30,381 bases of DNA. Source: Promethearchaeota archaeon. GTDB lineage: Archaea > Asgardarchaeota > Lokiarchaeia > Sigyniarchaeales > SOKP01. The DNA lies in contig JBHLME010000050.1 in the NCBI GenBank assembly GCA_048938445.1, positions 1 through 30,381 on the forward strand, read 5' to 3'. This document shows positions 3,136-27,617 of this stretch, in pieces. Position 1 is the first letter of the stretch. The number at the start of each line of letters is the position of its first letter. Below the pieces are notes generated by a model. The model ran no database searches, was not told the origin of the DNA, and saw only the letters and a list, made by a program, of their open reading frames with translations. Position numbers and translations under genes: made by a program.

Positions 3136-3160
3136 TTTGTTAGTTTTAACCCAGCAAGGG

Positions 3161-3203
3161 CAAGTCCCGTCCAATCTCGTTTTTTTATTGGACGTTCATC
3201 CTA
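3161..3203 (-). promoter_or_regulatory. SECIS element, eukaryote-like (AUGA...AAA...GA)
   Basis: Minus strand: TAGG-ATGA-A-CGTCCAAT-AAAAAAACGAG-ATTGGACG-G-GA-CTTG. Perfect 8-bp stem (3194-3187 with 3175-3168), A-rich apical loop, UGAN/NGAN quartet at the base; lies about 80 nt 3' of an in-frame UGA. Confidence 0.85.
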
Positions 3204-3345
3204 AACCAACATTTAATTTTCGAGAATAAATCTCTTCACCACTCTCATTAACGACTGTAATGTGAGCGGCACACGATAGTCAACAGTCAAAACAACGGAC
3301 TATCATTTCCAAGACATTTACTACTCCTTCTGGAACATCACTCAT
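3196..3345 (-). CDS. vhuU: Selenocysteine-containing [NiFeSe]-hydrogenase small active-site subunit (VhuU type), 49 aa
   Basis: Hand translation: MSDVPEGVVNVLEMIVRCFDC-U(TGA 3282-3280)-LSCAAHITVVNESGEEIYSRKLNVGLG*. Matches the hydrogenase C-terminal motif R-x-x-D-(P)-[C/U]-x-x-C-x-x-H; AGGTG Shine-Dalgarno upstream; the nearby large subunit lacks this motif; SECIS-like hairpin follows. Confidence 0.92.
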
Positions 3346-3441
3346 GTTTTAGCACCTATCTTATTTTTTTATTGCTTTATTTCGTATAAAAACTTATTTT
3401 TTATCAAAATTAACTTGCTAGTTTATATTTTAATTGTATTT

Positions 3442-4320
3442 CTATGCTATACTGTATTTTTCCAATAGCTCTTTTGGTCTGGTGCGATGAAATTTAATTC
3501 CGATATCATCAGATTTCTCTCCAAATGCTAATGCAAGCAACTCAGTAATATATAAAACTGGTATCCCGAATGTATCTCCTACTAATTTTTCAGCTTTTTT
3601 TTGATTAGTATCAAATTGTTGAAAACAAGCAGGACAGTTGACGATAAGTGCTTCTGCACCCGCGCCGATTGCACTTTTCATTTTATTTGCTAAAATTTGC
3701 ATTGCTGGTTCTTCTTCCGTGTTTCCAACACCAGAGCCACAACAGAGTACTTCTTCTTCATAATCTACAGGAGTTGCTCCTGTGGCCGCAACGATTTCTC
3801 TTAATTTCTTTGGTTTCATTGGATCATCTGTTTGCACTATTTCTGAAGGACGGTTATAATGACATCCCGTATGACATGCTACTTTTAAACCACTTAAATC
3901 TTTTTTGACCTTTTCCTTTATTTTTTCAGCGCCGATATCATGTAAAACTTCAACGAAATGTTTTACATTAATAGTACCTTTAAATTCTCTCCCGATTTGG
4001 CTAAGGATCTTGTTAATCTTTGCTTTTTCATGTTCATCATGGTTTAATTCTTTATTTACAAGTTTGAGTGTTTGAAAGCATCCATTGCATAAGGAGATGA
4101 TGTCTTTCCCTTCATCTTCAGCTATAGTTAAATTTCTTGCACCCATTGCCAACCAACTTTCATGATCTACTGAATTAAAACCAACAGGATCTGGACAGCA
4201 AGCAAAAGGTGCTTCGGACGTCTTTATTCCTAATTTATCAAATACTTTTCTTGCAGATGCTTCAAGGAAAGGAATTCTGTTTCCAATTGTACATCCTTGG
4301 AACATTTTATACTCAGTCAT
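3442..4320 (-). CDS. hdrB: Heterodisulfide reductase subunit B (divergent paralog)
   Basis: Two CCG domains: FQGC, ACCPDP, CNGCF, HTGCH, CCGSG, CPACFQQFD. Confidence 0.9.
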   Translation of the reverse strand: MTEYKMFQGCTIGNRIPFLEASARKVFDKLGIKTSEAPFACCPDPVGFNSVDHESWLAMGARNLTIAEDEGKDIISLCNGCFQTLKLVNKELNHDEHEKAKINKILSQIGREFKGTINVKHFVEVLHDIGAEKIKEKVKKDLSGLKVACHTGCHYNRPSEIVQTDDPMKPKKLREIVAATGATPVDYEEEVLCCGSGVGNTEEEPAMQILANKMKSAIGAGAEALIVNCPACFQQFDTNQKKAEKLVGDTFGIPVLYITELLALAFGEKSDDIGIKFHRTRPKELLEKYSIA

Positions 4321-4333
4321 CTTAATTCCTCCT

Positions 4334-4828
4334 TTATTTCTTTAAAATTATATTTAATTTTGTTGCATTTAAAAGTTTCTGAACCTCTTCTACATTTGGT
4401 TCTTCAATTTTAGGGAGGCCTAATTGTTCTCTTCTTCTTTCTATTGCAGGTTGCGGTGGAATTGCTTTTCCCGCATCATAAATAGTTGAAGCTTGAGTGG
4501 TGTAATAATCAGGGCCTTCTCCGGCAGCTATGCTCATATTTTTTAATACTGTGAATATTTCCGTTAATTCTATCTTCTGTGGACAGACTTCATCACATGT
4601 GTCGCATACAGTACAACCCCATATTGAAAAATTATCTTTTTGTCCCTTGAATACATTTATACCCAAGAATGATAACATTATATTTGCTCTTGGATTATAT
4701 TTATCAGGAGCTACTTTAGATACTGGACATACATCTGTACATCGAGAACACTGATAACAATACTTTAACGCGTCGTGAATATGAGCATCCATTACTTTTT
4801 TTCTTAATTCATAATCAACAGCAACCAT
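4334..4828 (-). CDS. hdrC: Heterodisulfide reductase subunit C (divergent paralog)
   Basis: CYQCSRCTDVCP and WGCTVCDTCDEVCP, R..LGLP motif; directly upstream of hdrB. Confidence 0.88.
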   Translation of the reverse strand: MVAVDYELRKKVMDAHIHDALKYCYQCSRCTDVCPVSKVAPDKYNPRANIMLSFLGINVFKGQKDNFSIWGCTVCDTCDEVCPQKIELTEIFTVLKNMSIAAGEGPDYYTTQASTIYDAGKAIPPQPAIERRREQLGLPKIEEPNVEEVQKLLNATKLNIILKK

Positions 4829-4878: not shown

Positions 4879-6183
4879 TTATTTTATCCATGGATCTGGT
4901 AATTTCAGTCCATCCAACGCCTTGTCTTCAAAAACTTGCTTGGCAACGTGCATCAAGGATTTCTCGATGCCAGCAATGTTGTGATTCGTCGCAACCAAGA
5001 GGTTAGCTTTCTCACAAATTCCTTGCGCATCAGACCAAATATTATAGAGCAATATTCCTCGTGGTGCTTCTGTCATGCCAACACCGTTCCCAGCCCTTGG
5101 TTCGACATCCAAAGTCTTGCAATCAGGGTTTACGATGTCAGGATCCTTGAGCAGGGTTGCGATCATTTCGATTGCTTCCACGGTCTCGATGATGCGAGCC
5201 CAATGATAGGCAAACGTGTGATGCGGATTGTCTCCAATCTTAGCACGCATATCCTTGAGGGCTTGATCGGCCAATGGTGTTGCCATCTTATCGGCAGCAT
5301 TGACCATTGCCAAACAGTTCGCACGATAAATTCCATCAGGGTAGCCCGCAGGCTTGTAATACATGTGCGTGGCATAAGAATGCTCAGGAATGTGCTCGCC
5401 TAACGCTTCCAAGTAGTTATGATAATCATAATCGATCTTCTTTCCATCGGGAGTCACGATCCGGATATCACCGTCATAAATATCGTGAACGCCATTCTTG
5501 GTCATACCAAAATAATACGTTGGAACGACGCCGACATTCGCGATGACATCAAAATAATCATCAACCACTTTTAAGGCAATTTCAACCGTCTTTTTCGTGA
5601 ATTCAATTTGTTCGTCAACTTGCTTGAGGAACTTGTCCCTTCCTTCTTCGCTCATGGGTTTTTTCATTCCACCAACAATTGCGGAAATGGGATGCACGGA
5701 CTTTCCACCAATTTCAGCGCATAATTTTTGGCCAAAATCCATCATCTTCAAGGCCATCGCACCCACGTCAGGCATTTGATTGATCACGTGCACGACATTT
5801 CTCAATGCAGGATCCGCCATGGGTCCCAATAAGAAGTCAGGTGCCGCCAAGGCATAAAAGTGCAACACGTGTGAACTATATTGCTTGGCATTCATGATCA
5901 ATTGCCGCAACTTGTAAGCGGCGGGAGGGATTTCCACGCCCCATGCATCTTCCACTGCCTTTGTTGGAGTAATGTGGTGGGGGATCGGACAAATGCCGCA
6001 GATTCTCGGGGTAATCCTTGGAATGTGCTCGCAGTAACGTCCTTCCACGAACTTTTCAAAAAATCTCGTCGAAGTGATGTTAAATTGCACGTCCTGCACC
6101 TTTCCATCGTCTCCGATTTTAATGTGCAACCCACCATGTCCTTCTAATCGAGTGACTGGTTCTACTTCAATTTCTTTTACCAT
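4879..6183 (-). CDS. vhuA: Group 3c-type [NiFe]-hydrogenase large subunit lacking the C-terminal CxxC (VhuA/MvhA)
   Basis: EPVTRLEGHG, RFFEKFVEGR, RICGICPIPH (N-terminal Ni motif), HFYALAAPDF, EAPRGIL; ends KLPDPWIK with no DPCxxC. Start moved to ATG 6183, after AAGGAGG. Confidence 0.92.
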   Translation of the reverse strand: MVKEIEVEPVTRLEGHGGLHIKIGDDGKVQDVQFNITSTRFFEKFVEGRYCEHIPRITPRICGICPIPHHITPTKAVEDAWGVEIPPAAYKLRQLIMNAKQYSSHVLHFYALAAPDFLLGPMADPALRNVVHVINQMPDVGAMALKMMDFGQKLCAEIGGKSVHPISAIVGGMKKPMSEEGRDKFLKQVDEQIEFTKKTVEIALKVVDDYFDVIANVGVVPTYYFGMTKNGVHDIYDGDIRIVTPDGKKIDYDYHNYLEALGEHIPEHSYATHMYYKPAGYPDGIYRANCLAMVNAADKMATPLADQALKDMRAKIGDNPHHTFAYHWARIIETVEAIEMIATLLKDPDIVNPDCKTLDVEPRAGNGVGMTEAPRGILLYNIWSDAQGICEKANLLVATNHNIAGIEKSLMHVAKQVFEDKALDGLKLPDPWIK

Positions 6184-6187
6184 TTCT

Positions 6188-7573
6188 TTATTCGCCTCCT
6201 TTATCATGTCGTTTATATCCTAAAGTACTAGCTGCTACGGTAAATCTATTAAATAATCCTGCAGGATCTTTAATCTGATTTAAGACTTCGTCAGGATCTT
6301 TATCAGCACATAACGAACCTAATGTGCTCATAAACTTGGCACCTTGTTCTTTTACACCGATAGGTGGTCCATAACAACCTAAGCATGGAGCATTAGCTTT
6401 ATTGGGACAGATAGTTCCACAACCGGCATGCGTGACGGGTCCTAAACAAATATATCCTTGTTCTAGGAAACAAGTATCCATGGTTGGTAATCCTTCATAA
6501 TCACGCTTCAAATCACCAGGTACCTTATCCGCAACTTCTCTATCACAATGACTACAAACGGTTTTTGAACTATATTTAAAATTTGGATCATCTTTTAACA
6601 AATATAATGCACTTCCAGCAATATTATCAATGATATTATTTCCTGTTGGAGCTACATCTAATGTTAATTTCCCCTTGACTTCCTTAGTTGCAATACTATC
6701 AGGTTCATACGCAAGTCTTTGAATCAAATCTCCACGGAAATAAAAATTACCGATATTTGCAACTCCTAAATATAGATCTAAAAAGTGTTGCAAGCTTGAA
6801 GCTTGTTCAGGTGTTAAGGTATTAACGCTTTCTACAATGCTCTTTAATTTCTCTACTTTTTTACCAGGTTTTGCAGTTGCTCTAAAACATCCAAAGCAAA
6901 CTTCTCCGTTATTAGGACACATTTCTTCGCAACCTGCTGCGGTGATTGACCCATAGCATAAGGTTCCCTTATCTAAGAAGCAGCCTTCTTTAGCTAAAGC
7001 ACATGTATCACAGACGCATTTATTTTTATTAAGAGACTTTGGACCTTCACCAACTACTGTCAGTAAGTAAGAGACTGCGGCTAGAATATTTTCTGTAGTA
7101 GGAGGACATCCAGGAATGAAAACATCCACGTCAACTATATCTTTAGTAAGTATGAGATGATCCTCAAAACCAGGGACATGTACAGTAGGTTCTCCTCCAC
7201 TTTTATCGGCAATACTTTCTACTTGTGAAAATTTTCTCGTGATCAATTCTTCTTTATCAAATAAGTTAGCTAAACCCTTTACACTTCCATGAACCGCGCA
7301 GGCACCTAATGCAACGATAACTTTGCACTTTTTTCTCATTAACTTCACATTAGCAGTATCTTGTTTAGTCCTCGCAACACCTTCAATGAACCCGACCACA
7401 ATCTCACCATCTTTCCTAGCTTCTAATGAATCATGCTTGAAGTCAACTACAGCTGGCCAGTAAACTATCTCGAGTTCTGGAAGTATCGGAAGCAAATTAA
7501 GATGAGCATTCAATAATGATTGATGACATCCCCAACATGAACTTAATTGCATAAAAGCTACTTTAACAGGCAT
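6188..7573 (-). CDS. vhuG: [NiFe]-hydrogenase small subunit (VhuG/MvhG), extended with a duplicated Fe-S domain
   Basis: SSCWGC, FIEG, ALGACAVHG, IPGCPP, then two Cys-rich blocks (C..C...CFLDKG.LCYG..T.AGC...CP and C..C...CFLEQGYICLGPVT.AGC...CP). Probable start ATG 7573. Confidence 0.9.
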   Translation of the reverse strand: MPVKVAFMQLSSCWGCHQSLLNAHLNLLPILPELEIVYWPAVVDFKHDSLEARKDGEIVVGFIEGVARTKQDTANVKLMRKKCKVIVALGACAVHGSVKGLANLFDKEELITRKFSQVESIADKSGGEPTVHVPGFEDHLILTKDIVDVDVFIPGCPPTTENILAAVSYLLTVVGEGPKSLNKNKCVCDTCALAKEGCFLDKGTLCYGSITAAGCEEMCPNNGEVCFGCFRATAKPGKKVEKLKSIVESVNTLTPEQASSLQHFLDLYLGVANIGNFYFRGDLIQRLAYEPDSIATKEVKGKLTLDVAPTGNNIIDNIAGSALYLLKDDPNFKYSSKTVCSHCDREVADKVPGDLKRDYEGLPTMDTCFLEQGYICLGPVTHAGCGTICPNKANAPCLGCYGPPIGVKEQGAKFMSTLGSLCADKDPDEVLNQIKDPAGLFNRFTVAASTLGYKRHDKGGE

Positions 7574-7695
7574 CTTGTTTTTTCTCACATGTTTTTTTGT
7601 AATTTCATTTATAAATAGTAATATTTCGTGTAATATTGAATTTAATAAAAATGTGTTGATTATAATGTGTCTTTTGTAAGCAAGTTTCCAAGTAA

Positions 7696-10067: not shown

Positions 10068-10919
10068 TTAGGCAGCGACATACAACCTGCCATTAGAACT
10101 ATTTGATACTTTTTGAGTAGCCTTATCAATTTTTGAATGGTTCTTTTCTACTGAATGATCTCCACTATATTCTATAAATTTTCCCTTGATTATTTCTCCG
10201 TTCATTAATTCAATTTCATTAACTTCACCGATTTTCTTATAAGAGGGTAGTATCTTCGATACTTTTCCCTTTACAACGACTGTTCCTCTAACTTGATCTG
10301 CTCCCACACCTCTATCACAATCACCTTCAACGATTATAGTCCCTCCGTGACTGTGAATTCCTAAAAAGGCCCCAGCACCACCACAGATTAGAGTAGGAAA
10401 TCTTTTCCCAGGTTTGGATCCACTTACCCATGATAAGGCTTCATGTCCAATATTCCCTTTCACCTTGATCACTCCGTTTTCCATTCCTTTCCAAAACCCT
10501 CTATAAGCAGCACCAACATAATTTCCTGCATTACCGGTAATCTCTAATTCTCCTCCTTTTAACATTGCTCCTGCCCAGTCACCAGCATTTCCATTCACTA
10601 GTATTTTTCCTCCTTTCATTAGAGATCCTACATGCATGCCAACATCACTATTTATCACAATTTCTCCACCAGTCATTTTTTCTCCTATTCTTTTCACGTT
10701 TGAAAGATCTCCATCAATAATGATTTTAGTATCGGCAATTTCACCAGCTTTTCCTGAAACGGTGAACAAATCTCCTATTGAAAGTTTTTCATTTCCACAA
10801 AAAATAGGCAATTTCTTTATATCATCAGCAGATTTTCCCGCAAAATTATCAGGTGTTATTGATTCAGCTTCTATTGGATAAACTTGAACTTTTTTTAACT
10901 TTAATTTTACATCTGCCAT
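10068..10919 (-). CDS. fwdC: Formylmethanofuran dehydrogenase subunit C
   Basis: PIEAESITPD, GXGXG beta-helix repeats (IGEKMTGG, VGSLMKGG, AGAMLKGG), GAAYRG. Confidence 0.93.
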   Translation of the reverse strand: MADVKLKLKKVQVYPIEAESITPDNFAGKSADDIKKLPIFCGNEKLSIGDLFTVSGKAGEIADTKIIIDGDLSNVKRIGEKMTGGEIVINSDVGMHVGSLMKGGKILVNGNAGDWAGAMLKGGELEITGNAGNYVGAAYRGFWKGMENGVIKVKGNIGHEALSWVSGSKPGKRFPTLICGGAGAFLGIHSHGGTIIVEGDCDRGVGADQVRGTVVVKGKVSKILPSYKKIGEVNEIELMNGEIIKGKFIEYSGDHSVEKNHSKIDKATQKVSNSSNGRLYVAA

Positions 10920-10920
10920 G

Positions 10921-12246
10921 TTATTTTTCCCCCTTTTTTTCTTTTACTTTATCAATCAAGAGCTGCAAAATTTCTGCATCAGTCAAGCATTCTCCAGGAG
11001 CATCTTTTACTTTCCTTAGCATTAATGGTACGTGATCCATTCGGTATGCTGTACCCTCACATTCAATTCCTGCAATGGCTGGAGGTAGGATGATGTCTGC
11101 AAAGGCTGAAGTAGGTGTCTCATGGGGTTCAATTGAGATTAATGGATGCTTAAACATGTTTCTGACCGATGCAGCTGGAAAGTTACTTGCAGGATCAGAG
11201 GCAACTATTAGTGAAGCATCGATTTCATCTTTTCTCAATACGTCGCATGAGGAAAATTCTCCTGGATTGTATCGGGGATAACCTTTTGAGAAATCAATTG
11301 AAAATGGATATCCTGTATTCCAGGTAAAAACAGTGTTCGCCCCACTCACGTTGTAATGTCCTCGCATGGCAGTGATCAAAAATTTTGTATAATCATTTAA
11401 CTCACGGGTTAAACAAATTGCAGCATCAATATTTCGATGATGAGCAAGTGTTTGAGTCAATCCCATACCAAAAAATATGACTCCAAATTTGCATGATTTT
11501 AGCTTATTAACAAGTTCCACAATTTGTTTTGTTGACACTCCTGAAACTTCTTGAGCATCGAGTTCTATACCTCTTACAACTGCTCTTATCGCATTAAGTA
11601 GCTCGTAGTCTTCATCGGGTTTTACTTGTAAGTGCAAGTCTGCTATTTGAGCTGTGTGTGTGTTTCTTGGATCTACCACGACAACATAACGATCATGACG
11701 TCCATCTTTTCTGAAATAGCCTCTTATGAATTCGCTATACCTTCCAAGATGTCTTGGATGAGCGTGAACGGGATTACACCCCCAGAAAACTACTAAATCT
11801 GCTCTATTTTTATACTCTCCTAAAGTTGAACTTGGAACACCTACATCTTGAACTGCCAATAATGTTGGACCATGACAAACTGAAGCAGTATTATCTAAAA
11901 TTCCCCCTAGGAGTTCAGCTAACTCAACGCCTTTTCCTTGTGCATGAGCTTCAGTGCTTGAAAATCCATAGAGTAATGGTCTTTTTGCTTTTACTAAAAT
12001 GTCTGCGGCTTTATCTATTCCATCATCCCAACTTACCTCTTTATGACCATCACCATCCTTAATGAGTGGTTTTGTGTACCTATGAGGGCTTGGATTTGAG
12101 GAGAAAAACTTTTTCGTGCCGATTTGACAACCATTCCTGACTTCAATGACTTTATTATCAACCACGTCAACTTCTAAATCATCACAAAGCGTTCCACAAA
12201 AAGGACAAACAACATCCTTGCACGTATTTATATTTTTTGATGCCAT
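10921..12246 (-). CDS. fwdB: Formylmethanofuran dehydrogenase subunit B (Cys form)
   Basis: CPFCGTLCDD, DNTASVCHGP (metal ligand is Cys), WGCNPVHAHPRH, MRGHYNV, YRMD. Confidence 0.95.
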   Translation of the reverse strand: MASKNINTCKDVVCPFCGTLCDDLEVDVVDNKVIEVRNGCQIGTKKFFSSNPSPHRYTKPLIKDGDGHKEVSWDDGIDKAADILVKAKRPLLYGFSSTEAHAQGKGVELAELLGGILDNTASVCHGPTLLAVQDVGVPSSTLGEYKNRADLVVFWGCNPVHAHPRHLGRYSEFIRGYFRKDGRHDRYVVVVDPRNTHTAQIADLHLQVKPDEDYELLNAIRAVVRGIELDAQEVSGVSTKQIVELVNKLKSCKFGVIFFGMGLTQTLAHHRNIDAAICLTRELNDYTKFLITAMRGHYNVSGANTVFTWNTGYPFSIDFSKGYPRYNPGEFSSCDVLRKDEIDASLIVASDPASNFPAASVRNMFKHPLISIEPHETPTSAFADIILPPAIAGIECEGTAYRMDHVPLMLRKVKDAPGECLTDAEILQLLIDKVKEKKGEK

Positions 12247-12248
12247 TA

Positions 12249-12644
12249 TCATACCTCTATTAATGTTTTTATTAATTCTAATGCATCTAAAACCTTTCCA
12301 GATTGAACTACTTCTACTTTTGCTTTCATTCCTTTAAAAGTAGGTGTTCCACAGGATTTCGAATCGGGATTTACTACTTGATTCGCCCAAGGCCCCATGG
12401 GGATGAAAATTACACCGGGATGAGGTCCCTCTTCTGAAATTGTAGAATAAACAACTACACTTCCATGATCTGTAATAATTTTTACAGGCGTTCCAACCAT
12501 GCATCCTAATTTTTTAAAATCATCTTTATCAAACATGCATATTCCAGCGGCACGAACATTTTCTTTCGTTGTTTTTGAACCCTCAAGGGCAACACCTTGC
12601 TGAATAGTTCGTCCTGTTAACAATATAACATCATTTAAACTCAT
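12249..12644 (-). CDS. fwdD: Formylmethanofuran dehydrogenase subunit D
   Basis: LLTGRTIQQG, FIPMGPWAN, GTPTFKG. Confidence 0.93.
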   Translation of the reverse strand: MSLNDVILLTGRTIQQGVALEGSKTTKENVRAAGICMFDKDDFKKLGCMVGTPVKIITDHGSVVVYSTISEEGPHPGVIFIPMGPWANQVVNPDSKSCGTPTFKGMKAKVEVVQSGKVLDALELIKTLIEV

Positions 12645-13360
12645 TATTTCTCACTCCTTGAATGTCTTCTCATTGTTTTTAATCGTTCTATTAGTTCTGG
12701 CCAAAATGGTTCATTAAACGTTCCTGAATATTTAACTTCTTTGATGTCTAAAACAACTGCACCAGTTGGACACGCATTATCGCAAGCACCACATCCCACA
12801 CACGACTCAGGATCGACAATTACATTAGGAGGATGCTCCCATCCTTTCTCGGCAGGTGGTGGGATTGTTATTGCTCCAGAAGGGCAGACTTCATAGCAAG
12901 TTCTGCATCCCCCTGCACATTCCTCATCAATTATCTTGATATCGGAATCAACATATTGCTTGACTACTTTTTCTACACCATTTTTATTCTTAATTTTCTT
13001 AGCCTGAAATTCCAATTTTGGAACAGCTTTTTGTTTAACGATTGGAATATCGTCCAAATTAAGTACCTCGCCATTAATTTTCAGAGTTAATGCCGAAAAG
13101 GGACAGCAAACGACACAAGTCCCACACATGACACATTTATTTGGATCGTAAACCTCAGGAATCAATCCAGTTGTATTGGAGAGTCTAATGGATGCCCCTA
13201 CTGGTCCTCTATGAACTGCACCTTTTGGACAAACGCGCCCACAGGTGCCACAACCCGTGCATTTACCCTTGTCCAAAATTAACTCCTGGGCTTGCGTGAG
13301 ATATTGAACTTTAACAATCTCTTCATTACCTATTATTTTTCTGCTAATTTTTGGAAACAT
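12644..13360 (-). CDS. fwdF: Polyferredoxin, FwdF-like (4 x [4Fe-4S] motifs)
   Basis: CTGCGTCGRVCP, CVMCGTCVVCCP, CAGGCRTCYEVCP, CVGCGACDNACP; inside the fwd operon. Confidence 0.75.
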   Translation of the reverse strand: MFPKISRKIIGNEEIVKVQYLTQAQELILDKGKCTGCGTCGRVCPKGAVHRGPVGASIRLSNTTGLIPEVYDPNKCVMCGTCVVCCPFSALTLKINGEVLNLDDIPIVKQKAVPKLEFQAKKIKNKNGVEKVVKQYVDSDIKIIDEECAGGCRTCYEVCPSGAITIPPPAEKGWEHPPNVIVDPESCVGCGACDNACPTGAVVLDIKEVKYSGTFNEPFWPELIERLKTMRRHSRSEK

Positions 13361-13397
13361 TCATCTTAACCTCTTATTTTATAAACATTAAAAAATT

Positions 13398-14114
13398 CTA
13401 TTTTTTTCTTTCATTTAATTTTAATCTTGATACGATATTATCCCAAAATGGGCTATTATAAGTGCCTGAATACTTAACATCAGTTATTTCAAGCGTTAAA
13501 GCTCCAGTTGGGCATGCATTATGACATGCTCCACATGCAATGCACTTATCATTATTGATAGTAAGTATGATTTCTGAATCCCATGTAATATCTCCTTGTT
13601 CACAAGACCACGTGATCGCACCTGAAGGGCAAGAATCTGCACAGTTTTTACACCCACCTGCACATAAATTAGTGTTTATCGTTACAAATCCCTCGGTATA
13701 TATGTTAGCTTTCTTTCCTGAATCTAGTGTTATAGTTTTAGATTCTAATTTTGGGAGTGCTTTCTGTTCAACTAATTGAATCTTGGAAACAGGAAGGGAT
13801 TCTCCATTTATTGATAAAGTTAATGCTTCAAAAGGACATAGATATGCACATGTTCCACAATAGACGCATTTTGATGGATCTCTCACGTTTGGAATTAAGA
13901 AATGGCGCACTTTTTTTATGATTTGCTTGTGGGAAAATCTAATAGGTTCATTGAGTTTTTGTTTTGAGATTGCCTCTTTAGGACATGCTCGGGAACAGAC
14001 TCCACATCCCACGCATTTTTCTTTATCAAGAATTAATTCCAGATTTTCTTTTAAGAATTGAACATTTACAGTTTCAAAATTATTCTCCTTCTTCCTCGAT
14101 ATTTTAGGAAACAT
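13398..14114 (-). CDS. fwdF: Polyferredoxin, FwdF-like tandem paralog (4 x [4Fe-4S] motifs)
   Basis: Same length (238 aa), same MFPKISRK start and same four-cluster layout as its neighbour. Confidence 0.75.
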   Translation of the reverse strand: MFPKISRKKENNFETVNVQFLKENLELILDKEKCVGCGVCSRACPKEAISKQKLNEPIRFSHKQIIKKVRHFLIPNVRDPSKCVYCGTCAYLCPFEALTLSINGESLPVSKIQLVEQKALPKLESKTITLDSGKKANIYTEGFVTINTNLCAGGCKNCADSCPSGAITWSCEQGDITWDSEIILTINNDKCIACGACHNACPTGALTLEITDVKYSGTYNSPFWDNIVSRLKLNERKK

Positions 14115-14136
14115 TTCTAATTAAGAACCTCTTTTA

Positions 14137-14397
14137 TCAAATTATTTGTTTTATTGACATATCAATGGCATTTTGGGGACATTCCTTGACACATACACCA
14201 CAGCCATCGCAATTTTGTTTTCTATCATCGATGAAAATTGGATAAGCCGTGCCATTTCTTACCAATAGGACAGCATTTTTAGAAGTTAATTGGCCATCAA
14301 TCTTTAACCTATTAAAATTAATGGGGCAGCTTACTACGCATACATTACATCCAGTACATAAAAATTTATTAATCTTAAGCGTGAAATCTTGAGACAT
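14137..14397 (-). CDS. fwdG: 2[4Fe-4S] ferredoxin, FwdG-like
   Basis: CTGCNVCVVSCPIN ... CDGCGVCVKECP, 86 aa, in the fwd operon. Confidence 0.75.
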   Translation of the reverse strand: MSQDFTLKINKFLCTGCNVCVVSCPINFNRLKIDGQLTSKNAVLLVRNGTAYPIFIDDRKQNCDGCGVCVKECPQNAIDMSIKQII

Positions 14398-14399
14398 TT

Positions 14400-14822
14400 T
14401 TATCCCTCCTGTCTTAGTGGATTTGGACCTAATTCCTTAATCGTGTGAACAAATTCATTAGCTACTTCCGTTAATTCTGCTCCTTCTGAAGCTGAAATTT
14501 GGGTATAATAAACTCTTTTAGGATTTATCCCGTATTGTTCCAAGTAGCGATGAAGTAATTTCATTTTCGCAAATGTTTTATAATTTCCTTCCACATAATG
14601 ACAATCACCCGCATGGCAATGTGAAACAAGTACACCATCCGCGCCATTCATTAAAGCATCCAAAACATGTTGTGGTTCCATTCTTCCCCCACACATCACA
14701 CGCATTATGCGTAAATTGGCTGGTCGTTGCATGCGCGAAGTTCCAGCCTGATCTGCGCCAGCATACGTGCACCAGTTGCAAAAAATAGCTAAAATTTTTG
14801 GATTAAACTCACTTACCGTCAT
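14400..14822 (-). CDS. mvhD: [2Fe-2S] hydrogenase delta subunit MvhD/VhuD (Cys form)
   Basis: FCNWCTYAGAD.AG, RVMCGGR, GADGVLV..CH.GDCHY.EGN, ISASEG, LGPNPL. Confidence 0.95.
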   Translation of the reverse strand: MTVSEFNPKILAIFCNWCTYAGADQAGTSRMQRPANLRIMRVMCGGRMEPQHVLDALMNGADGVLVSHCHAGDCHYVEGNYKTFAKMKLLHRYLEQYGINPKRVYYTQISASEGAELTEVANEFVHTIKELGPNPLRQEG

Positions 14823-19570: not shown

Positions 19571-20719
19571 ATGCAAGTCACACGATCAGAGGATATATTA
19601 ATATTTTTTGGATTGACTCCGAATAAAATTAAGAAGTTGAGTCCAATTAGTGATACATTAGCGAAATTCATGACTCAAAAACAATCTATAGATCCATCTG
19701 ATCGATTTAATTTTATAGCATTTCAAGAGATGGCTCCGAGTTATTTAGACCATTTTACACTAGATCCTACTATTGTACTGAACACTTTAAAGTCTATGGA
19801 AAAAGAACTTACAAGAGCTAATCTTGCTGGAGGCATTTTTGTTGCAATTACTTTTATCATCGAAGTGTATAAAACGATATCTCAAAAAAATTTTAGATTG
19901 ATAATATTATGTGATGATGGTTCTTATAAGATACCCTCTCAATATCTTCCAGTTTTACAGAATTTAATAGATAAAGTAAAGAACATACCCTTTTTTATTG
20001 ATATAATCCATATCAATGGGTATGATCTCGAAGAAAGCAAGAAGTTAGCAAGTTTAGCTGCAAGTACAAAAGGTAAATATTTTGAAATTAGTAAGTTGAA
20101 AGATTTGGAATCAATTTTATTAACACTTACCGAAAAAAAATACATTAGAGTCGAACCTTCTTATGCCAAAAAGGAGCCGTTAATTTTAAAAGAAAATCAA
20201 CCCTTTTACATTAACTTAGCAGATGATCCTATACCAATCAACACTCTTGAAACTTGTGCTATCTGTTTTAAGAAAAGTGAGCGTGGAGTAGTGCAATGTC
20301 CCAAATGTGAAACAAAGACCCATAAATCTTGTTGGGCCCAATGGGCTAAAACTTCTCATATTGGAATACCACATGTTTTTAGATGCCATATATGCTATAA
20401 TATTTTAAAACTTGATGAGAAATATGTCGATGACGTGCAATCTGGGGTCATCCCTACTGAAGAGCAATTACAAGAAATTGAAAAACGTGATATTGTAAAA
20501 TACATGAAAGATTTAGAAACAAAAGAAAAACCAAAAATGGTTCATGTTGAGGATCCAATGGCGATAATGTCTGAAAAAATGGATGAAATAAGACAAAATA
20601 AAACAGATAAGAAAAGAAAAAAAAAATCAAATATAAAGGTAGTTATATGCCCCATATGCAGCAATATAACTACCAATCTTAGGCAAAAATGTCCAACTTG
20701 TGGATATCAATTATTATAA
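19571..20719 (+). CDS. vWA-domain protein with C4HC3 (RING-variant/PHD-like) finger and C-terminal zinc ribbon
   Basis: vWA-like elements (DRFNFIAF, NLAGGIFVA, RLIILCDDG, FIDIIHI, LAASTKGKYF); CAIC-x11-CPKC-x4-H-x2-C-x17-CHIC; CPIC-x10-CPTC. Confidence 0.75.
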   Translation: MQVTRSEDILIFFGLTPNKIKKLSPISDTLAKFMTQKQSIDPSDRFNFIAFQEMAPSYLDHFTLDPTIVLNTLKSMEKELTRANLAGGIFVAITFIIEVYKTISQKNFRLIILCDDGSYKIPSQYLPVLQNLIDKVKNIPFFIDIIHINGYDLEESKKLASLAASTKGKYFEISKLKDLESILLTLTEKKYIRVEPSYAKKEPLILKENQPFYINLADDPIPINTLETCAICFKKSERGVVQCPKCETKTHKSCWAQWAKTSHIGIPHVFRCHICYNILKLDEKYVDDVQSGVIPTEEQLQEIEKRDIVKYMKDLETKEKPKMVHVEDPMAIMSEKMDEIRQNKTDKKRKKKSNIKVVICPICSNITTNLRQKCPTCGYQLL

Positions 20720-22183: not shown

Positions 22184-24178
22184 TTATTCTTTAAGTGCCC
22201 AACTTATAATTTCATTGAGTTGGAAATTAGCGAAATGGTTCTGAACCATTGCTCCGGAAGGACAAGCTGAAACACAGGTTCCACATCCTTTGCATAGTAC
22301 AGGATTGACAACAGCAACCTTTTTAAACTCATCAAAGTCAATAGCTCCAAAAGGGCATAAACTTTGACATGACCTGCATCCTGAACATTCATGTTCTAAT
22401 ACAACAGAATAATAAGGTTCGATCTCAACTTCTCCTTTTGCCATTAATGTTGCAGCACTTGAAGCAGCACCCTTTGCTTGAGAAACGGTATCTGGAATAT
22501 CTTTTGGACCTTGGGCGACTCCTGCAACAAAAATACCATTCGTTAATGTATCAACAGGCCTTAATTTTGGATGTGCTTCCATAAAAAATCCATCAGAAGA
22601 ACGCTGTACGCTTAATAGGGATGCTACTTTATCTGCGTCGGATTTTGCTTCTAATCCTGTAGAAAGCACGAATAGTTCTACTTTAAGTTCAATTGGGGTT
22701 TGAAGTAATGTATCTTCTGCTCTAATAATGATATCATGATTTTCATCTTCGGTTACTTCCGCAATTCTCCCCCTTACATACGTTATACCATATTCTCGAG
22801 CTGCTGACTCATAAAATTCCTCATATCCCTTTCCAAATGCTCTTATGTCCATGTAAAAAATGTAAATCTCTGCTTCAGGATGTTTCTCTTTATATTGTCG
22901 TGCTTGTTTAGTAGCATACATGCAGCACACTCTCGAGCAGTATTGATTGCATCCATCTTTAAACATTCTACTTCCAACACATTGAAGAAATGCGACACTG
23001 TGAGGAGCTTTCAAGTCAGAAGGTCGAGCAGGTTTTCCTTCCAATGGTCCTGTAGAGCTTAATAACCTTTCCATTTGCAGGCCATTTATCACGTTCGGAT
23101 ACCTTCCGAAACCATATTGCTTTAATTCAGTAGCGTCATATAAGTCCCAACCCGTTGCAATAATTATGGTACCTACTTTTACTTTTATATATTCTGGTTT
23201 ATCGTCATAATTAATTGCTCCAGGTTCACAAACATCATTTCGAGCACAAAGTCCGCACTGAATGCATTTTTCCATATCAATGGTATATTGTCCAGGAACA
23301 GCTTGAGGAAACGGAATGTAAACGGCTTTACGAGTTGCCAACCCTAGATCGAATTCATTTCCACAAGTTACCGGGCAGACTTCAGCACATGCTCCACATC
23401 CAGTACAAGTCTCCTGATTAATATAATGAGGTTTATGCATTATAGTAACTTCAAAATTACCAACATATCCACTCACATCTACGACTTCAGAATAAGAATG
23501 AATTTTAATATTTTCATTTCTCGCGACATCAACCATACGTGGTGTAAGAATGCATGCACTACAATCCATGGTAGGAAAAGTTTTATCAAGTTGGGCCATA
23601 TGCCCTCCAATAGTAGGAGTCCTCTCTACTAAATGAACCTGATATCCTTCTGTACCTAAATCTAAAGCAGCATTCATTCCTGCTATACCTGCACCTATAA
23701 TTAAACAAGAAGGTTCAACGCTTACTTTTTGAACTTCTAATGGTAGCAATTTTCGAGCCTTTGCTACGGCCATTTTAATATGGTCTTTTGCAATCTCATA
23801 TGCACCCTCATGATCCCTCATATTGACCCATGTTGCATGTTCTCTGATATTTGCTTGTTCAAACAAGAATTGGTTTAAACCTGCTTCTTTACACACTAAT
23901 CTAAAGGTTGGTTCATGCATTCTTGGAGAACAAGCTGCTACAACCACTCGATTGATTAGTCCATCTTCTATATCTTTTTTGATTATTTCCTGCCCATTAT
24001 CAGAACAAAAAAACTTGTATTCTCTTGCCATGACAACATTAGGTAAAGTTTTAGCGTATTCAATCAAGTCTGGAACGGATACAACTCCACCTATATTAAT
24101 ACCACAGTGGCATACATATACACCTATTTTTGGTACTTCTCTGCCTGTAATTTGGATTTCATCTTTAGCTTCTGTCAT
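22184..24178 (-). CDS. hdrA: Heterodisulfide reductase subunit A (Cys form)
   Basis: GVYVCHCGINI, IIGAGIAG, QLDKTFPTMDCSACILTP, inserted ferredoxin domain, QCVGSR, YCSRVCC, GPKDIPD, C-terminal ferredoxin domain. Confidence 0.97.
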   Translation of the reverse strand: MTEAKDEIQITGREVPKIGVYVCHCGINIGGVVSVPDLIEYAKTLPNVVMAREYKFFCSDNGQEIIKKDIEDGLINRVVVAACSPRMHEPTFRLVCKEAGLNQFLFEQANIREHATWVNMRDHEGAYEIAKDHIKMAVAKARKLLPLEVQKVSVEPSCLIIGAGIAGMNAALDLGTEGYQVHLVERTPTIGGHMAQLDKTFPTMDCSACILTPRMVDVARNENIKIHSYSEVVDVSGYVGNFEVTIMHKPHYINQETCTGCGACAEVCPVTCGNEFDLGLATRKAVYIPFPQAVPGQYTIDMEKCIQCGLCARNDVCEPGAINYDDKPEYIKVKVGTIIIATGWDLYDATELKQYGFGRYPNVINGLQMERLLSSTGPLEGKPARPSDLKAPHSVAFLQCVGSRMFKDGCNQYCSRVCCMYATKQARQYKEKHPEAEIYIFYMDIRAFGKGYEEFYESAAREYGITYVRGRIAEVTEDENHDIIIRAEDTLLQTPIELKVELFVLSTGLEAKSDADKVASLLSVQRSSDGFFMEAHPKLRPVDTLTNGIFVAGVAQGPKDIPDTVSQAKGAASSAATLMAKGEVEIEPYYSVVLEHECSGCRSCQSLCPFGAIDFDEFKKVAVVNPVLCKGCGTCVSACPSGAMVQNHFANFQLNEIISWALKE

Positions 24179-24189
24179 TTTTTTCCCTC

Positions 24190-25143
24190 TTATTCTATTA
24201 ATTGTTCTTTAACTATTTCCATAAAGGGATCTATCGAGATAAAAGGAGGAACCCCTGCTAGTTCATGATTTTTTATTAACCCCAATTGATTGGGATCAAT
24301 ACCAAAGGATAGACCTAACAACTGTGTCAAGTAAATTACAGGTATCTTATATGGCTCTCCAATGAGGTCTTTATATATCCCATTAGCTTCCATCTGCCCC
24401 AAATCTAACTGTAAATGACAAAATGGACATACATCTATAATAATATCAGCGCCAGCATTTCTTATATTATCTAGTTTTTCCCTTGAAAAATCAGCAGAAA
24501 CTTCTTTTACAGCTGTTCTCACGGCTCCACCTGCCCCGCAACACATGAATTTATCTTTATAATTAATACTTTTTGCTCCAGTCAATTCAACTATTTCATC
24601 AAGAAATGTTGGGTTTTCATATTCACCATCCCAAGGACGTTTATCACTTGGTTTTAAGATATGACATCCATAATGTACTGCTACTTTTAAATCTTTAAAT
24701 TTATGTTTTATGTGATCTCTTAAATAATCAATACCCATATCCAAATATAATGCCTGAACTACATGTTTTGGTTCTAAATTACCTTTATATTTTCGTCCAA
24801 CCTTAGCTAAGTGCTCATTTACCATTTTTTTTAATTTTGGTTCATGTTCCATCTCAACCCAGGCGTCTCTTAAAGTTCCATAACATCCATTGCACCCAGT
24901 AAGAGGGCTAACACCCATCTCTTCTGCGATTGATATATTTCTTGCGGCAATAACAAGCCACGATGGGATATGGAAGGCTCTAAATACACCTGGAGCTGGA
25001 CAACAAGAAGCACCTTCTAACTCTAACAATTCCGCTCCTAAATGGTCAAATACAGCTCTAATTGATGCTTCAATCATGGGATATCTGTTTGGAGCAACAC
25101 ATCCTAGAAAAAAACCATATCTCCATTTTTTTTCTTCACTCAT
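24190..25143 (-). CDS. hdrB: Heterodisulfide reductase subunit B
   Basis: FLGC..PNRYP, GASCCPAPG, CNGCYGTL, HYGCH, CCGAGG, CPFCHLQLD.GQ. Confidence 0.95.
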   Translation of the reverse strand: MSEEKKWRYGFFLGCVAPNRYPMIEASIRAVFDHLGAELLELEGASCCPAPGVFRAFHIPSWLVIAARNISIAEEMGVSPLTGCNGCYGTLRDAWVEMEHEPKLKKMVNEHLAKVGRKYKGNLEPKHVVQALYLDMGIDYLRDHIKHKFKDLKVAVHYGCHILKPSDKRPWDGEYENPTFLDEIVELTGAKSINYKDKFMCCGAGGAVRTAVKEVSADFSREKLDNIRNAGADIIIDVCPFCHLQLDLGQMEANGIYKDLIGEPYKIPVIYLTQLLGLSFGIDPNQLGLIKNHELAGVPPFISIDPFMEIVKEQLIE

Positions 25144-25745
25144 TTCTTTTCCTCCTTGTTTTCTTCTTGTTTCGCTCTTTCTTCCTTTAATTTCGCAGCA
25201 TTGTCCATCAATTCAGTAAACCCGACAGATTTTAATAAATCTTGCACTTCCTTTACTGCTTCTGGATGACAGTGTACTGTGGGAGGTAATGGAGGTAATC
25301 CATATGATTCCCGTAAATCTTGCCATTTTTTATTAGCTTCTCCATCTGCAGGCACTCCATGTCCTGTTTTATAGAAAATATTATTGGCCAAACTAAAATG
25401 GGCATCTAATATATATCCTTCCTCAACTGCGATGTTTCGAAGCTTTATGATCATATCTGTTACTGGTATATTACGTGGACAACGTTCATAACAGTAATAA
25501 CAAGTAGAGCAGAGCCAGATGTCGATATCTGATAAAACAGATTCATCACCAGTAAGAGCCCTTCTTATTGCTGAACGAGTTCGATAAGCCGTTCTCCTCC
25601 CAGATGGACATCCTCCTGTACAAGTTCCACAATTGATACAAGCTCTCAATTGTTCAAGACCTGCATCCACGAATTTCTGCGCAATTTTAGAATTAATTCC
25701 CTTAAAAACCTTTCTCTTAATATATTTATCTACATTATCGCTCAT
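25140..25745 (-). CDS. hdrC: Heterodisulfide reductase subunit C
   Basis: CINCGTCTGGCPSGRRT, WLCSTCYYCYERCPR, TGHGVP, LPPTVH. Confidence 0.95.
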   Translation of the reverse strand: MSDNVDKYIKRKVFKGINSKIAQKFVDAGLEQLRACINCGTCTGGCPSGRRTAYRTRSAIRRALTGDESVLSDIDIWLCSTCYYCYERCPRNIPVTDMIIKLRNIAVEEGYILDAHFSLANNIFYKTGHGVPADGEANKKWQDLRESYGLPPLPPTVHCHPEAVKEVQDLLKSVGFTELMDNAAKLKEERAKQEENKEEKK

Positions 25746-26089
25746 GTTCTAATCATTTCTTTTTTTTGATTATTAAACTGCTTTTTTGGCAATTTAAACG
25801 AAAAGTTAGTCTTTAACTTTTTTTGTTTGATCAAACTTTAAAATAGATAATCTTACGTTGTAAAATCAAAAAACTAATAAAAAATTTGTTAAAATTTTTT
25901 AAAACTTGTTGTCCATTTTTAGTTAATTTTTATTTCTTAAACCTATAAAAATAAAGAAGTCTTGAATGTTTTTTTTCCTTTTTGGAAAACTTGGTGTTTG
26001 ATCTTTGTCGTTTTTTTTAAAATTTATAAATAATTTTTATAGAATTTGAAAAAGTATTGTAGATAATGATTAAAATGGAAAAAATTGAT

Positions 26090-27031
26090 TCAAATTAATT
26101 GTTTTTTTATTTTATTTAGAAATGGGTCAATAGATATGATAGGAGGCACTCCTTCTATATTAGGAGTTTTAGCCAATCCCAATCGAGATGGATTTATTCC
26201 CATCGCTAGTCCAAGTAATTGAGTTATGTAGATAACTGGAAGATTTAGTGGAGTATCAATTAATTCGGGATAAATATCATTTGCTTCCCGTTGACCTGCA
26301 TCTAGTTGAAAATGACAAAATGGACAACAATTGATAACAATATCTATGTGTGCTTCTCTCATATTTATTATTTTTTCACGTGTAAAGTCTGCTGAAACTT
26401 CTCTAATAGCTCCTCTAACTGCTCCTCCTGCACCACAACAAGCATATTTATCTTTATAATTAACGCTCTTAGCACCTGTTATTTCAACCATTTCATCTAG
26501 AAATGACGGATATTCGTATTCTCCATTCCAAGGGCGCTTGTCACTTGGTTTTACGATGTGACAACCATAATGAACCCCTACTTTTAGATCTTTGAACTTA
26601 TTCTTTATATGATCTTTAAGATATTCAATTCCAAGGTCTTGATATAAAACTTGAACAACGTGCTTTGGTTCTGAAGATCCTTTAAATTGGCGCCCCACTT
26701 GCTTAAGATATTCATTCACTTTTCTTTTTTCTTCTGGATTTTCATTGAGTTCACACCATACATCCCTTAAAGATCCAAAACATCCATTGCAACCTGTTAC
26801 AATATCTACACTCAATTCTTCTGCAATTGAAATATTTCTCGCTGCAAGAGCTTGCCAAGTTGGAATGTGAAATCCTCTAATTACACCAGGAGCAGGACAA
26901 CATGATGCACCCTGCATTTCCAGGAGTTCAATTCCAAGCTCTTCAAAAACCGATCTTATACTTCGTTCGATTTGGGGGTATCTATTTGGCATTATGCATC
27001 CTAAAAAAAATCCATATTTTAATGAATTCAT
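26090..27031 (-). CDS. hdrB: Heterodisulfide reductase subunit B (tandem paralog)
   Basis: Same motifs as 24190-25143; start moved to ATG 27031 after AAGGAGGG. Confidence 0.94.
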   Translation of the reverse strand: MNSLKYGFFLGCIMPNRYPQIERSIRSVFEELGIELLEMQGASCCPAPGVIRGFHIPTWQALAARNISIAEELSVDIVTGCNGCFGSLRDVWCELNENPEEKRKVNEYLKQVGRQFKGSSEPKHVVQVLYQDLGIEYLKDHIKNKFKDLKVGVHYGCHIVKPSDKRPWNGEYEYPSFLDEMVEITGAKSVNYKDKYACCGAGGAVRGAIREVSADFTREKIINMREAHIDIVINCCPFCHFQLDAGQREANDIYPELIDTPLNLPVIYITQLLGLAMGINPSRLGLAKTPNIEGVPPIISIDPFLNKIKKQLI

Positions 27032-27032
27032 T

Positions 27033-27617
27033 CTATTTTCCCTCCTTGTTATTATTTTTAGCAATGATGATCTTATCTAACAAGTTCCTAAATCCCGTAA
27101 CTTTCATCAAATTTTGGCATTCTTGTAGTGCCTCTGGATATGAATGAACTGTAGGAGGTAATGCAGGTAAATCTAAAGAAACACGAAGATCCCTATAATT
27201 TTGATGATTTTCGGCATTTACAGGTGCGGCATGCCCCGTGGCATATAAAAGCTTGTCCGCTAAGAAAAGATGGTTCCCTAAAATATTTCCATGTTCAACA
27301 GCAATATTTCTGAGCTTAATGATCATGTCAGTTACAGGAATGTTCCTGGGGCAGCGCTCATAGCAATAATAACATGTCGTGCATTCCCAAATGTCAATAT
27401 CTTGTAAAATTGAAATGTCTCCAATCAAAGCTCGACGAATAGCAGAACGCGTGCGATAAGCTGTTCGTCTCCCTGAAGGACAACCTCCTGTACAGGTACC
27501 ACAATTTATACAAGACCTTATTTGTTCCAAACCAGCTTCAACAAATAGCTGTGAGATTTTGGAATTAATATTTTTTATTGTCCCTCTCTTAATGTATTTC
27601 TTAACATTTTCATTCAT
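27033..27617 (-). CDS. hdrC: Heterodisulfide reductase subunit C (tandem paralog)
   Basis: CINCGTCTGGCPSGRRT, WECTTCYYCYERCPR, TGHAAP, LPPTVH. Confidence 0.94.
   Translation of the reverse strand: MNENVKKYIKRGTIKNINSKISQLFVEAGLEQIRSCINCGTCTGGCPSGRRTAYRTRSAIRRALIGDISILQDIDIWECTTCYYCYERCPRNIPVTDMIIKLRNIAVEHGNILGNHLFLADKLLYATGHAAPVNAENHQNYRDLRVSLDLPALPPTVHSYPEALQECQNLMKVTGFRNLLDKIIIAKNNNKEGK

Follow-up and report, generated by a model that had tools for sequence, protein, structure and literature searches.

The DNA analysed here, which we call the window, comprises positions 1 to 30,381 (30,381 nucleotides) of contig JBHLME010000050.1 in assembly GCA_048938445.1, a metagenome-assembled genome (MAG) of a Promethearchaeota archaeon of the Lokiarchaeia. 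Its minus strand carries an operon in the order vhuG-vhuA-hdrC-hdrB-vhuU, which encodes the small (Fe-S) and large subunits of a hydrogenase, two proteins resembling HdrC and HdrB and, in last place, a small polypeptide whose reading frame is interrupted by a TGA codon (Table 1). The reading that we favour, and in which we place high confidence, is that vhuU encodes the precursor of a selenocysteine (Sec)-containing selenoprotein that completes VhuA. An earlier inspection of the letters alone had arrived at this proposal, which we refer to as the original prediction.

If TGA is translated as Sec (U), the minus strand from 3345 to 3196 gives 49 residues followed by a second TGA. The N-terminal part reads M-S-D-V-P-E-G-V-V-N-V-L-E-M-I-V-R-C-F-D-C-U-L-S-C-A-A-H, which ends in the Ni-ligand motif U22-L-S-C25-A-A-H28, a UxxCxxH closed by His28, and is extended by 21 further residues (I29-G49). 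A Shine-Dalgarno-like word, GGTG, lies 8 nt 5' of the ATG, and a 96-nt AT-rich spacer separates vhuU from hdrB. The translation, the TGA at 3282-3280 and the extension after the His are as the original prediction had them. The list of open reading frames (ORFs) made under translation table 11 has no entry of at least 40 amino acids at 3196-3345 in either orientation. An ORF track would thus overlook vhuU, again as had been claimed, and no Pfam family was matched by the 49-residue peptide. Among 177,635 Protein Data Bank (PDB) sequences, residues 4-31 of the peptide align to residues 424-451 of MvhA (5odc_F; E 1.8e-5), and residues 4-29 to residues 2-27 of the 27-amino-acid chain 9sfi_M (E 0.008), which the PDB names "F420 non-reducing hydrogenase subunit". 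In the alignment the TGA shares a column with the Sec (X) of 9sfi_M and with the first Cys of DPCLSCATH in MvhA, which puts UGA where the C-terminal CxxCxxH Ni-ligand motif has its first Cys, the position foreseen for Sec in the original prediction. The peptide is by homology a separate, small counterpart of the extreme C-terminus of a group 3c large subunit.

The stretch of MvhA matched by the peptide is the one that VhuA is without. VhuA keeps the N-terminal RxCGxC motif (R-I-C70-G-I-C73 in the numbering of the 442-amino-acid product), and no C-terminal CxxCxxH was found in it. Its residues 12-424 align to 3-416 of the unsplit, 473-amino-acid MvhA, and residues 12-426 to 3-417 of the 418-amino-acid chain 9sfi_g (E 1.7e-126), with the C-terminal end of VhuA coinciding with the end of that split VhuA. 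The best NCBIfam model is also that of VhuA (NF041785; 473 bits, model positions 3-417 of 418). For the neighbouring genes the corresponding matches are NF045875 for VhuG, its best model (234 bits), TIGR03290 for the HdrC-like protein (78.8 bits) and TIGR03288 for the HdrB-like protein (284 bits, model positions 1-289 of 290). A start of vhuA at 6183 would abolish its overlap with vhuG. These results bear out the split VhuA/VhuU architecture, the large subunit with only the N-terminal CxxC and the hdrC-hdrB pair between vhuA and vhuU, all of which had been claimed beforehand. Judged by the alignments, the window carries the VhuA/VhuU split for which a solved structure (9sfi) exists, and the 49-residue product with its in-frame UGA is predicted to supply the missing Ni-binding end of the split hydrogenase.

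A six-frame search of 41 genomes, namely the window's own genome and others of its genus, family and order, returned a vhuU match in 37. Exactly one in-frame TGA is present in 46 of the 48 matches with E <= 6.6e-7. Of the other two, one is a Cys form in genome G027 and one, in G006, is the N-terminal piece of a copy with a frameshift; 11 further, weak matches fall inside large unsplit hydrogenase genes. After removal of duplicates, U occupies the identical position in all 38 distinct peptides, which span an order. If the TGA is decoded, conservation should continue downstream of it, as the original prediction had it, and all 38 are conserved through the extension, which keeps the pattern ...V-V-D/N-E-x-G-x-E-I-Y-S-R-K-L-N-V-G-L-G; the TGA position thus aligns Sec with Sec or with Cys within a peptide that is conserved over residues 1-49. 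On these sequence comparisons, the matches to MvhA and 9sfi_M and the conservation in relatives exceed chance. G027 comes from another family, and its split small subunit has D-C-C where the window has Sec (L150, G027:C117). The frameshifted vhuU of G006 is L154 (G006:C57), and in L032 an extra TAA lies within the extension.

A sequencing error at the TGA was considered and rejected, the codon being kept in relatives and unvaried in assembled public data: two studies provide four public sediment runs, and in their contigs no other letter is reported at 3280-3282, neither TGT nor TGC occurring there, and a synonymous change of the adjacent Cys21 codon (position 3283, TGT to TGC) is common in the same runs, a comparison that rests on contigs, from which rare variants are dropped, and in which the run that best holds the stretch may be the source sample. 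One might alternatively regard the vhuU frame as the decayed remnant of the C-terminus of an unsplit large subunit, its TGA being a true stop and the hydrogenase being non-catalytic or completed in some other way. Decay would accommodate the interruption of the frame under table 11 as well as the frameshifted copy in G006 and the extra TAA in the extension of L032, but it would leave unexplained why, across the order, all 38 distinct peptides are conserved on both sides of the TGA and why synonymous changes surround the codon, a pattern that makes a remnant very unlikely. The same split with Sec in a solved structure, and the covarying RNA element 3' of the frame and complete Sec machinery described below, also speak against it, and we give a remnant next to no credence.

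The residue that precedes Sec is Cys in most of the family (D-C-U in 36 of the 38 distinct peptides, D-P-U in two), and three sequences of another family (L151-L153) have D-F-U. A Cys-Sec pair forms a reversible selenenylsulfide in thioredoxin reductase, and by analogy the conserved Cys could form one that protects the active site here. We rejected the idea that this dyad is essential: the position is C, P or F according to lineage, so the pair is not required for function.

A selenocysteine insertion sequence (SECIS) element of the Lokiarchaeota type overlaps the 3' end of vhuU, and the UGA of its AUGA core is the stop codon of the gene (Table 1). Three bases and then a G separate the 5' strand of the basal helix from the AUGA. 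RNAalifold, run on 29 family members, predicted the basal helix, the main stem and part of the small hairpin. For a 19-pair structure that we specified, standard pairs fill 94.9% of the 551 cells in the 29 aligned sequences, compared with 28-49% when the 3' partners are slid by one to three columns. Two-sided changes occur at nine pairs, seven of which are among the nine pairs of the main stem, and none of 500 shuffles reached the observed covariation score, a statistic to be read with the relatedness of the sequences, and the partial derivation of the structure from those same sequences, in mind. The basal helix is built from Val-Gly-Leu codons, and the third position of the Gly codon (GGT/GGC) covaries with its partner in a word of the 3'-UTR, the U-A pair having become C-G in five sequences and being broken in three; some of the conservation seen in the extension may thus reflect a constraint on the RNA. 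Rfam at its gathering threshold gave no match over the whole window and so recognised no SECIS family. For the lokiSECIS, Mariotti et al. (2016; PMC4989117) describe an AUGA, a stem of 9 bp, a loop of 11 nt that begins with adenines and ends in G and, beyond the stem, GA or AA, and they state that the AUGA of VhuU.1 is at the same time the stop codon; the element in the window agrees with this description, as far as it is given in the part of that paper available to us.

Table 1. Positions of the vhu-hdr genes, of the elements of vhuU and its SECIS, and of the second vhuA copy. Positions are those of the window unless a contig is named.
Feature	Position	Strand	Description
vhuG	6188..7588	minus	hydrogenase small (Fe-S) subunit, 466 aa; PF01058
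vhuA	4879..6207 (alternative start 6183)	minus	[NiFe(Se)] hydrogenase large subunit without C-terminal ligand motif; PF00374
hdrC-like	4334..4828	minus	between vhuA and vhuU; Fer4 dicluster families
hdrB-like	3442..4320	minus	between vhuA and vhuU; two CCG domains; PF02754
vhuU	3196..3345	minus	49 codons and TGA stop; small subunit with C-terminal Ni-ligand motif
Sec codon TGA	3280..3282	minus	residue 22 of the vhuU peptide
SECIS, Lokiarchaeota type	3139..3210	minus	from sequence, 29-member alignment, RNAalifold consensus and pair counts
SECIS basal helix	3210-3204 (GTTGGTT) with 3145-3139 (AACTAAC)	minus	5' strand made of V-G-L codons
SECIS AUGA core	3199-3196	minus	its UGA is the vhuU stop codon
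SECIS main stem	3195-3187 with 3175-3167	minus	9 positions
SECIS apical loop	3186-3176	minus	11 nt, A-rich, seven A first, AG last
SECIS GA	3166-3165	minus	after the main stem
Small extra hairpin in SECIS	3161-3149	minus	from sequence
Oligo-T runs after SECIS	~3134-3121	minus	from sequence
Second-operon vhuA parts	C176:91249-91950; C3:16710-16913		compared with window 4879-6207

The assembly from which the window comes (4.63 Mb in 256 contigs, 96.5% complete, 8.2% contamination) contains the components named in the original prediction, that is, tRNA-Sec, SepSecS, PSTK, EFSec/SelB and SelD together with a candidate maturation protease. SepSecS lies at C157:291-1448 (378.7 bits), and a full-length PSTK-like gene on C208 (159 bits, E 2.5e-46). 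SelD on C226 (181 bits) itself has one in-frame TGA. SelB/EFSec, at C108:34952-35839, scores 243.3 bits, barely above the cut-off, and lies about 4.6 kb from the tRNA-Sec gene on the opposite strand. The protease, of the HycI family, is encoded at C80:12159-12482 (47 bits). The tRNA-Sec gene, 120 nt long with the anticodon TCA, sits directly upstream of SepSecS and spans C108:40439-40558 into C157:1-76, two contigs that overlap by 73 nt at this point; the best Rfam tRNA-Sec matches sit at the C108 end and the C157 start. It folds with a 9-bp acceptor stem, a 6-bp anticodon stem with the loop CTTCAAA, a long variable arm of 6 bp and a 4-bp T stem. Once a 30-nt insertion in the D-loop is set aside, the D stem has 7 bp and a 4-nt loop; what remains is a 90-nt tRNA of the archaeal 9/4 shape, after which come G and CCA. 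In the window, ARAGORN detected no tRNA. Calls of "tRNA-SeC" that ARAGORN returned for the genome when introns were allowed and the threshold was lowered were disregarded, their introns of 359-1586 nt being implausible.

The UGA could also be read as Cys or Trp instead of Sec, through near-cognate decoding or genome-wide recoding, and the split Cys form (DCC...) in G027 indicates that Cys is functional at the site. Six of the window's 29 ordinary ORFs, however, end at TGA as a normal stop, and on this ground we rejected global recoding. Nor would a Cys or Trp reading call for a dedicated SECIS element in a genome that has tRNA-Sec, SepSecS, PSTK, EFSec and SelD, or for the retention of TGA, rather than TGT or TGC, in 46 of the 48 strong matches. 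We consider decoding as Cys or Trp highly improbable.

The position of vhuU behind an hdrC-hdrB pair sets the window apart from most related loci. In a survey of the 80 closest vhuA loci among species-representative genomes, almost all of them Loki-type Asgard MAGs (Promethearchaeota/Promethearchaeia), vhuU follows directly after vhuA in 69, and the full order vhuG-vhuA-vhuU-hdrC-hdrB is present in 61. The order of the window, vhuG-vhuA-hdrC-hdrB-vhuU, occurs in eight, and in three the contig ends at vhuA. Among separately retrieved relatives the window order is complete in six contigs and partial in five. Having been assembled in these other relatives, it is a genuine, conserved minority arrangement. 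At one locus, L062, vhuA is followed by hdrB and vhuU, and no hdrC match was found there. An hdrC-hdrB pair between vhuA and vhuU was not found in the text of the literature on vhuU, a comparison that does not extend to synteny supplements.

The window's own genome contains a second Vhu-Hdr operon, which is of the majority type and is split over contigs C3 and C176. Compared with the window, its vhuU is 94% identical, and its hdrC, hdrB and vhuG are 56%, 59% and 45% identical, respectively. The parts of its vhuA that are present encode 234 and 68 residues that are 100% identical to the window protein; the DNA identity is 94.3% and 97.6%, and every difference is silent. The spacer 3' of vhuA, including the ribosome-binding word and the ATG, can be aligned between the two loci; what comes after it is hdrC in the window and vhuU in the second locus.

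Such near-identical copies raise the question of whether the gene order of the window is an assembly chimera, formed through vhuA, with the real vhuU standing beside vhuA. The likeness of the two vhuA genes (94-98% in DNA), the breaks of C3 and C176 within the second copy and a locus, L113, that joins a window-type vhuG to the other gene order would all be compatible with a chimera. The junctions that define the arrangement, however, at the end of vhuA with hdrC and between hdrB and vhuU, lie outside the repeat. The full order has been assembled independently in the contigs of the six further relatives, and partly in the five others, and it recurs in 8 of the 80 loci of species representatives, while contigs of the public runs cover 3304-3985, from the 5' part of vhuU into hdrB, with no differences. 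We therefore regard a chimera as extremely improbable.

Several observations weigh against the selenoprotein reading of the operon. The tRNA-Sec gene scores 39.5 bits with the Rfam model, for which the gathering cut-off is 47, and a genome-wide run of ARAGORN with default settings found no tRNA-Sec; the 30-nt D-loop insertion is the likely cause of both. VhuA, VhuG, HdrB, HdrC and PSTK all remain under their NCBIfam equivalog cut-offs, which stand at 800 bits for NF041785 (VhuA) and 345 for TIGR03288 (HdrB). In the SECIS element, the window has an A.G mismatch at the ninth pair of the main stem, a pair that fails to form in 10 of the 29 aligned sequences, and UUGA replaces AUGA in 4 of the 29 relatives. 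Finally, given the 8.2% contamination of the MAG, the two vhuU copies could in principle come from two strains. None of these points contradicts the reading, and we found no other evidence that does.

According to the reading that we favour, the archaeal SelB/EFSec would deliver Sec-tRNA(Sec), by which UGA codon 22 would be read as Sec under the direction of the kink-turn-type AUGA/GA SECIS element. This element begins 81 nt downstream and overlaps with the frame at its end, and the second UGA, as part of the SECIS core, would terminate translation. The peptide would then bind VhuA and provide the two C-terminal active-site ligands, Sec22 and Cys25, which together with Cys70 and Cys73 of VhuA would complete a [NiFeSe] centre. 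Following metal insertion, the HycI-type endopeptidase would be expected to cut off the 21-residue extension after His28. The finished VhuAGU hydrogenase would have as partners HdrBC-type subunits and, from genes located elsewhere, HdrA/MvhD, in a proposed role in flavin-based electron bifurcation or H2 cycling. The gene, its motif, the conserved TGA and the peptide conserved after it, the covarying SECIS element, the Sec machinery and the split large subunit are shown by the analysis; that Sec is inserted, that the peptide binds VhuA and is trimmed, and which partner the enzyme has in the cell we infer from homology only.

Phylogenetic analysis of the two operons gave different histories for their genes. 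In a tree built with FastTree from 92 distinct VhuA sequences, the label of belonging to a window-type operon (12 rows) needs 10 changes, against a mean of 11.5 for shuffled labels, and copies of the two types that come from one MAG pair with each other, as for L072/L073 (support 99). A single clade of the 12 window-type rows is rejected by the approximately unbiased (AU) test (lnL difference 526, p 2.7e-59), which was applied to an IQ-TREE quick tree of 31 rows that we chose from the 92, namely all 12 window-type rows, their nearest neighbours and an outgroup. By contrast, the same label needs one change in the HdrB tree (16 of 88 rows) and two in the VhuG tree (13 of 78 rows). Across relatives VhuA thus groups by genome and not by operon type, which suggests gene conversion. 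The simplest reading of these trees is that the two operons are old paralogues, the vhuA genes of which would have been repeatedly homogenised by gene conversion, and vhuU has probably been homogenised in the same way. Mis-assembly of MAGs through the repeat could contribute to the likeness of the vhuA copies, but it cannot have produced the silent-site differences between them. A broader possibility, which we put forward tentatively and think somewhat unlikely, is that many Lokiarchaeial cells have two Vhu-Hdr operons in which gene conversion keeps the VhuA and VhuU pair near identical beside divergent VhuG, HdrC and HdrB, so that one [NiFeSe] core would serve two wiring modules. In the window's version of the operon vhuU, with its SECIS element, is the last cistron, so that, if this were true, the module as a whole would be completed only where decoding has selenium at its disposal.

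The family to which vhuU belongs is not new, as the original prediction had itself pointed out, correctly judged by the available part of PMC4989117: the gene in the window encodes the VhuU selenoprotein that Mariotti et al. (2016) reported from Lokiarchaeota and is a further instance of a known family, since its size, role, SECIS type and the stop codon within the AUGA have already been described for Lokiarchaeota. In the portion of that paper available to us, VhuU is a subunit of an F420-non-reducing hydrogenase and has about 50 residues, one of them Sec, and an AUGA that overlaps the stop codon, as in the window, and Lokiarchaeota likewise have EFSec a few kb away from tRNA-Sec and on the other strand and a SelD that is a selenoprotein. 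Two differences can be noted against that portion: the intron of the Lokiarchaeota tRNA-Sec is placed there in the T arm, whereas the 30-nt insertion in the present genome lies in the D-loop, and the text has no hdrC-hdrB pair between vhuA and vhuU. Elsewhere, again in the parts available to us, 68.3% of the Asgard archaea that use Sec are reported to have the MvhA/VhuU family (Huang et al., 2024), which is also listed in a 2026 review (PMC13188914). Homogenised vhuA, a SECIS basal helix in coding sequence and a D-loop insertion in tRNA-Sec were not found in the published text on VhuU, supplements lying outside the comparison. Together with the alternative operon order, they are the modest additions made here.

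Among better-known hydrogenases, the VhuA/VhuU of Methanococcales (9sfi chains g and M; NF041785) comes closest, sharing a split large subunit of about 418 amino acids and a peptide of the form D-x-Sec-x-S-C-A-A-H. It differs in having Pro before Sec (9sfi_M) where the window has Cys (DCU), in its host, the present archaeon being, to judge from its relatives, a non-methanogen, and in its SECIS element, which in methanogens is of the archaeal GAA_A type according to the available part of PMC13188914, whereas that of the window is of the AUGA/GA type. MvhA of the MvhAGD-HdrABC complex (5odc chain F, 473 amino acids) belongs to the same hydrogenase group and, like the Vhu genes here, is associated with Hdr subunits; VhuA and VhuU between them cover MvhA 3-451. 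Unlike them, MvhA is one polypeptide and has Cys in place of Sec (DPCLSCATH). The bacterial periplasmic [NiFeSe] large subunit (5jsu_B; NF045518 HysA) has Sec at the same terminal Ni-ligand Cys, and the vhuU peptide weakly resembles its C-terminus (E 0.15), but it is unsplit and belongs to another hydrogenase group. A bacterial SECIS sits inside the coding sequence, just after the UGA.

Gene callers miss vhuU and give vhuA the label of a truncated hydrogenase, and metabolic reconstructions of Asgard archaea can in consequence wrongly score an H2-cycling enzyme as defective. Vhu hydrogenase, its Hdr partners and the exchange of H2 are central to syntrophy-based ideas on the origin of eukaryotes. 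As the selenoprotein and the eukaryote-like SECIS are already established in the available parts of earlier work (Mariotti et al., 2016; Huang et al., 2024), the present locus adds little biologically in this respect.

Other genes of the window also encode Hdr-related and redox proteins. Positions 10068-14822 (minus strand) hold fwdC (TIGR03122), fwdB, fwdD, genes for two 238-amino-acid polyferredoxins and a small ferredoxin, and an MvhD/VhuD-like gene without TGA. The fwdB gene exceeds its cut-off (TIGR03129, 600 bits) and is the Cys form, without TGA; the cluster amounts to a formylmethanofuran-dehydrogenase-like module beside an Hdr-docking subunit in a non-methanogen. At 22184-27617 (minus strand), an HdrA2-like gene (664 amino acids; NF040770, 877 bits; no in-frame TGA) adjoins two further tandem hdrC/hdrB-like pairs on the same strand, which makes three HdrCB pairs in the 30-kb window. 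Two ORFs of a eukaryotic flavour, typical of Asgard genomes, have Pfam matches to GPP34/Golgi phosphoprotein 3 (28586-29281; E 1e-8) and to Tfb4 with a prokaryotic RING finger (19571-20719).

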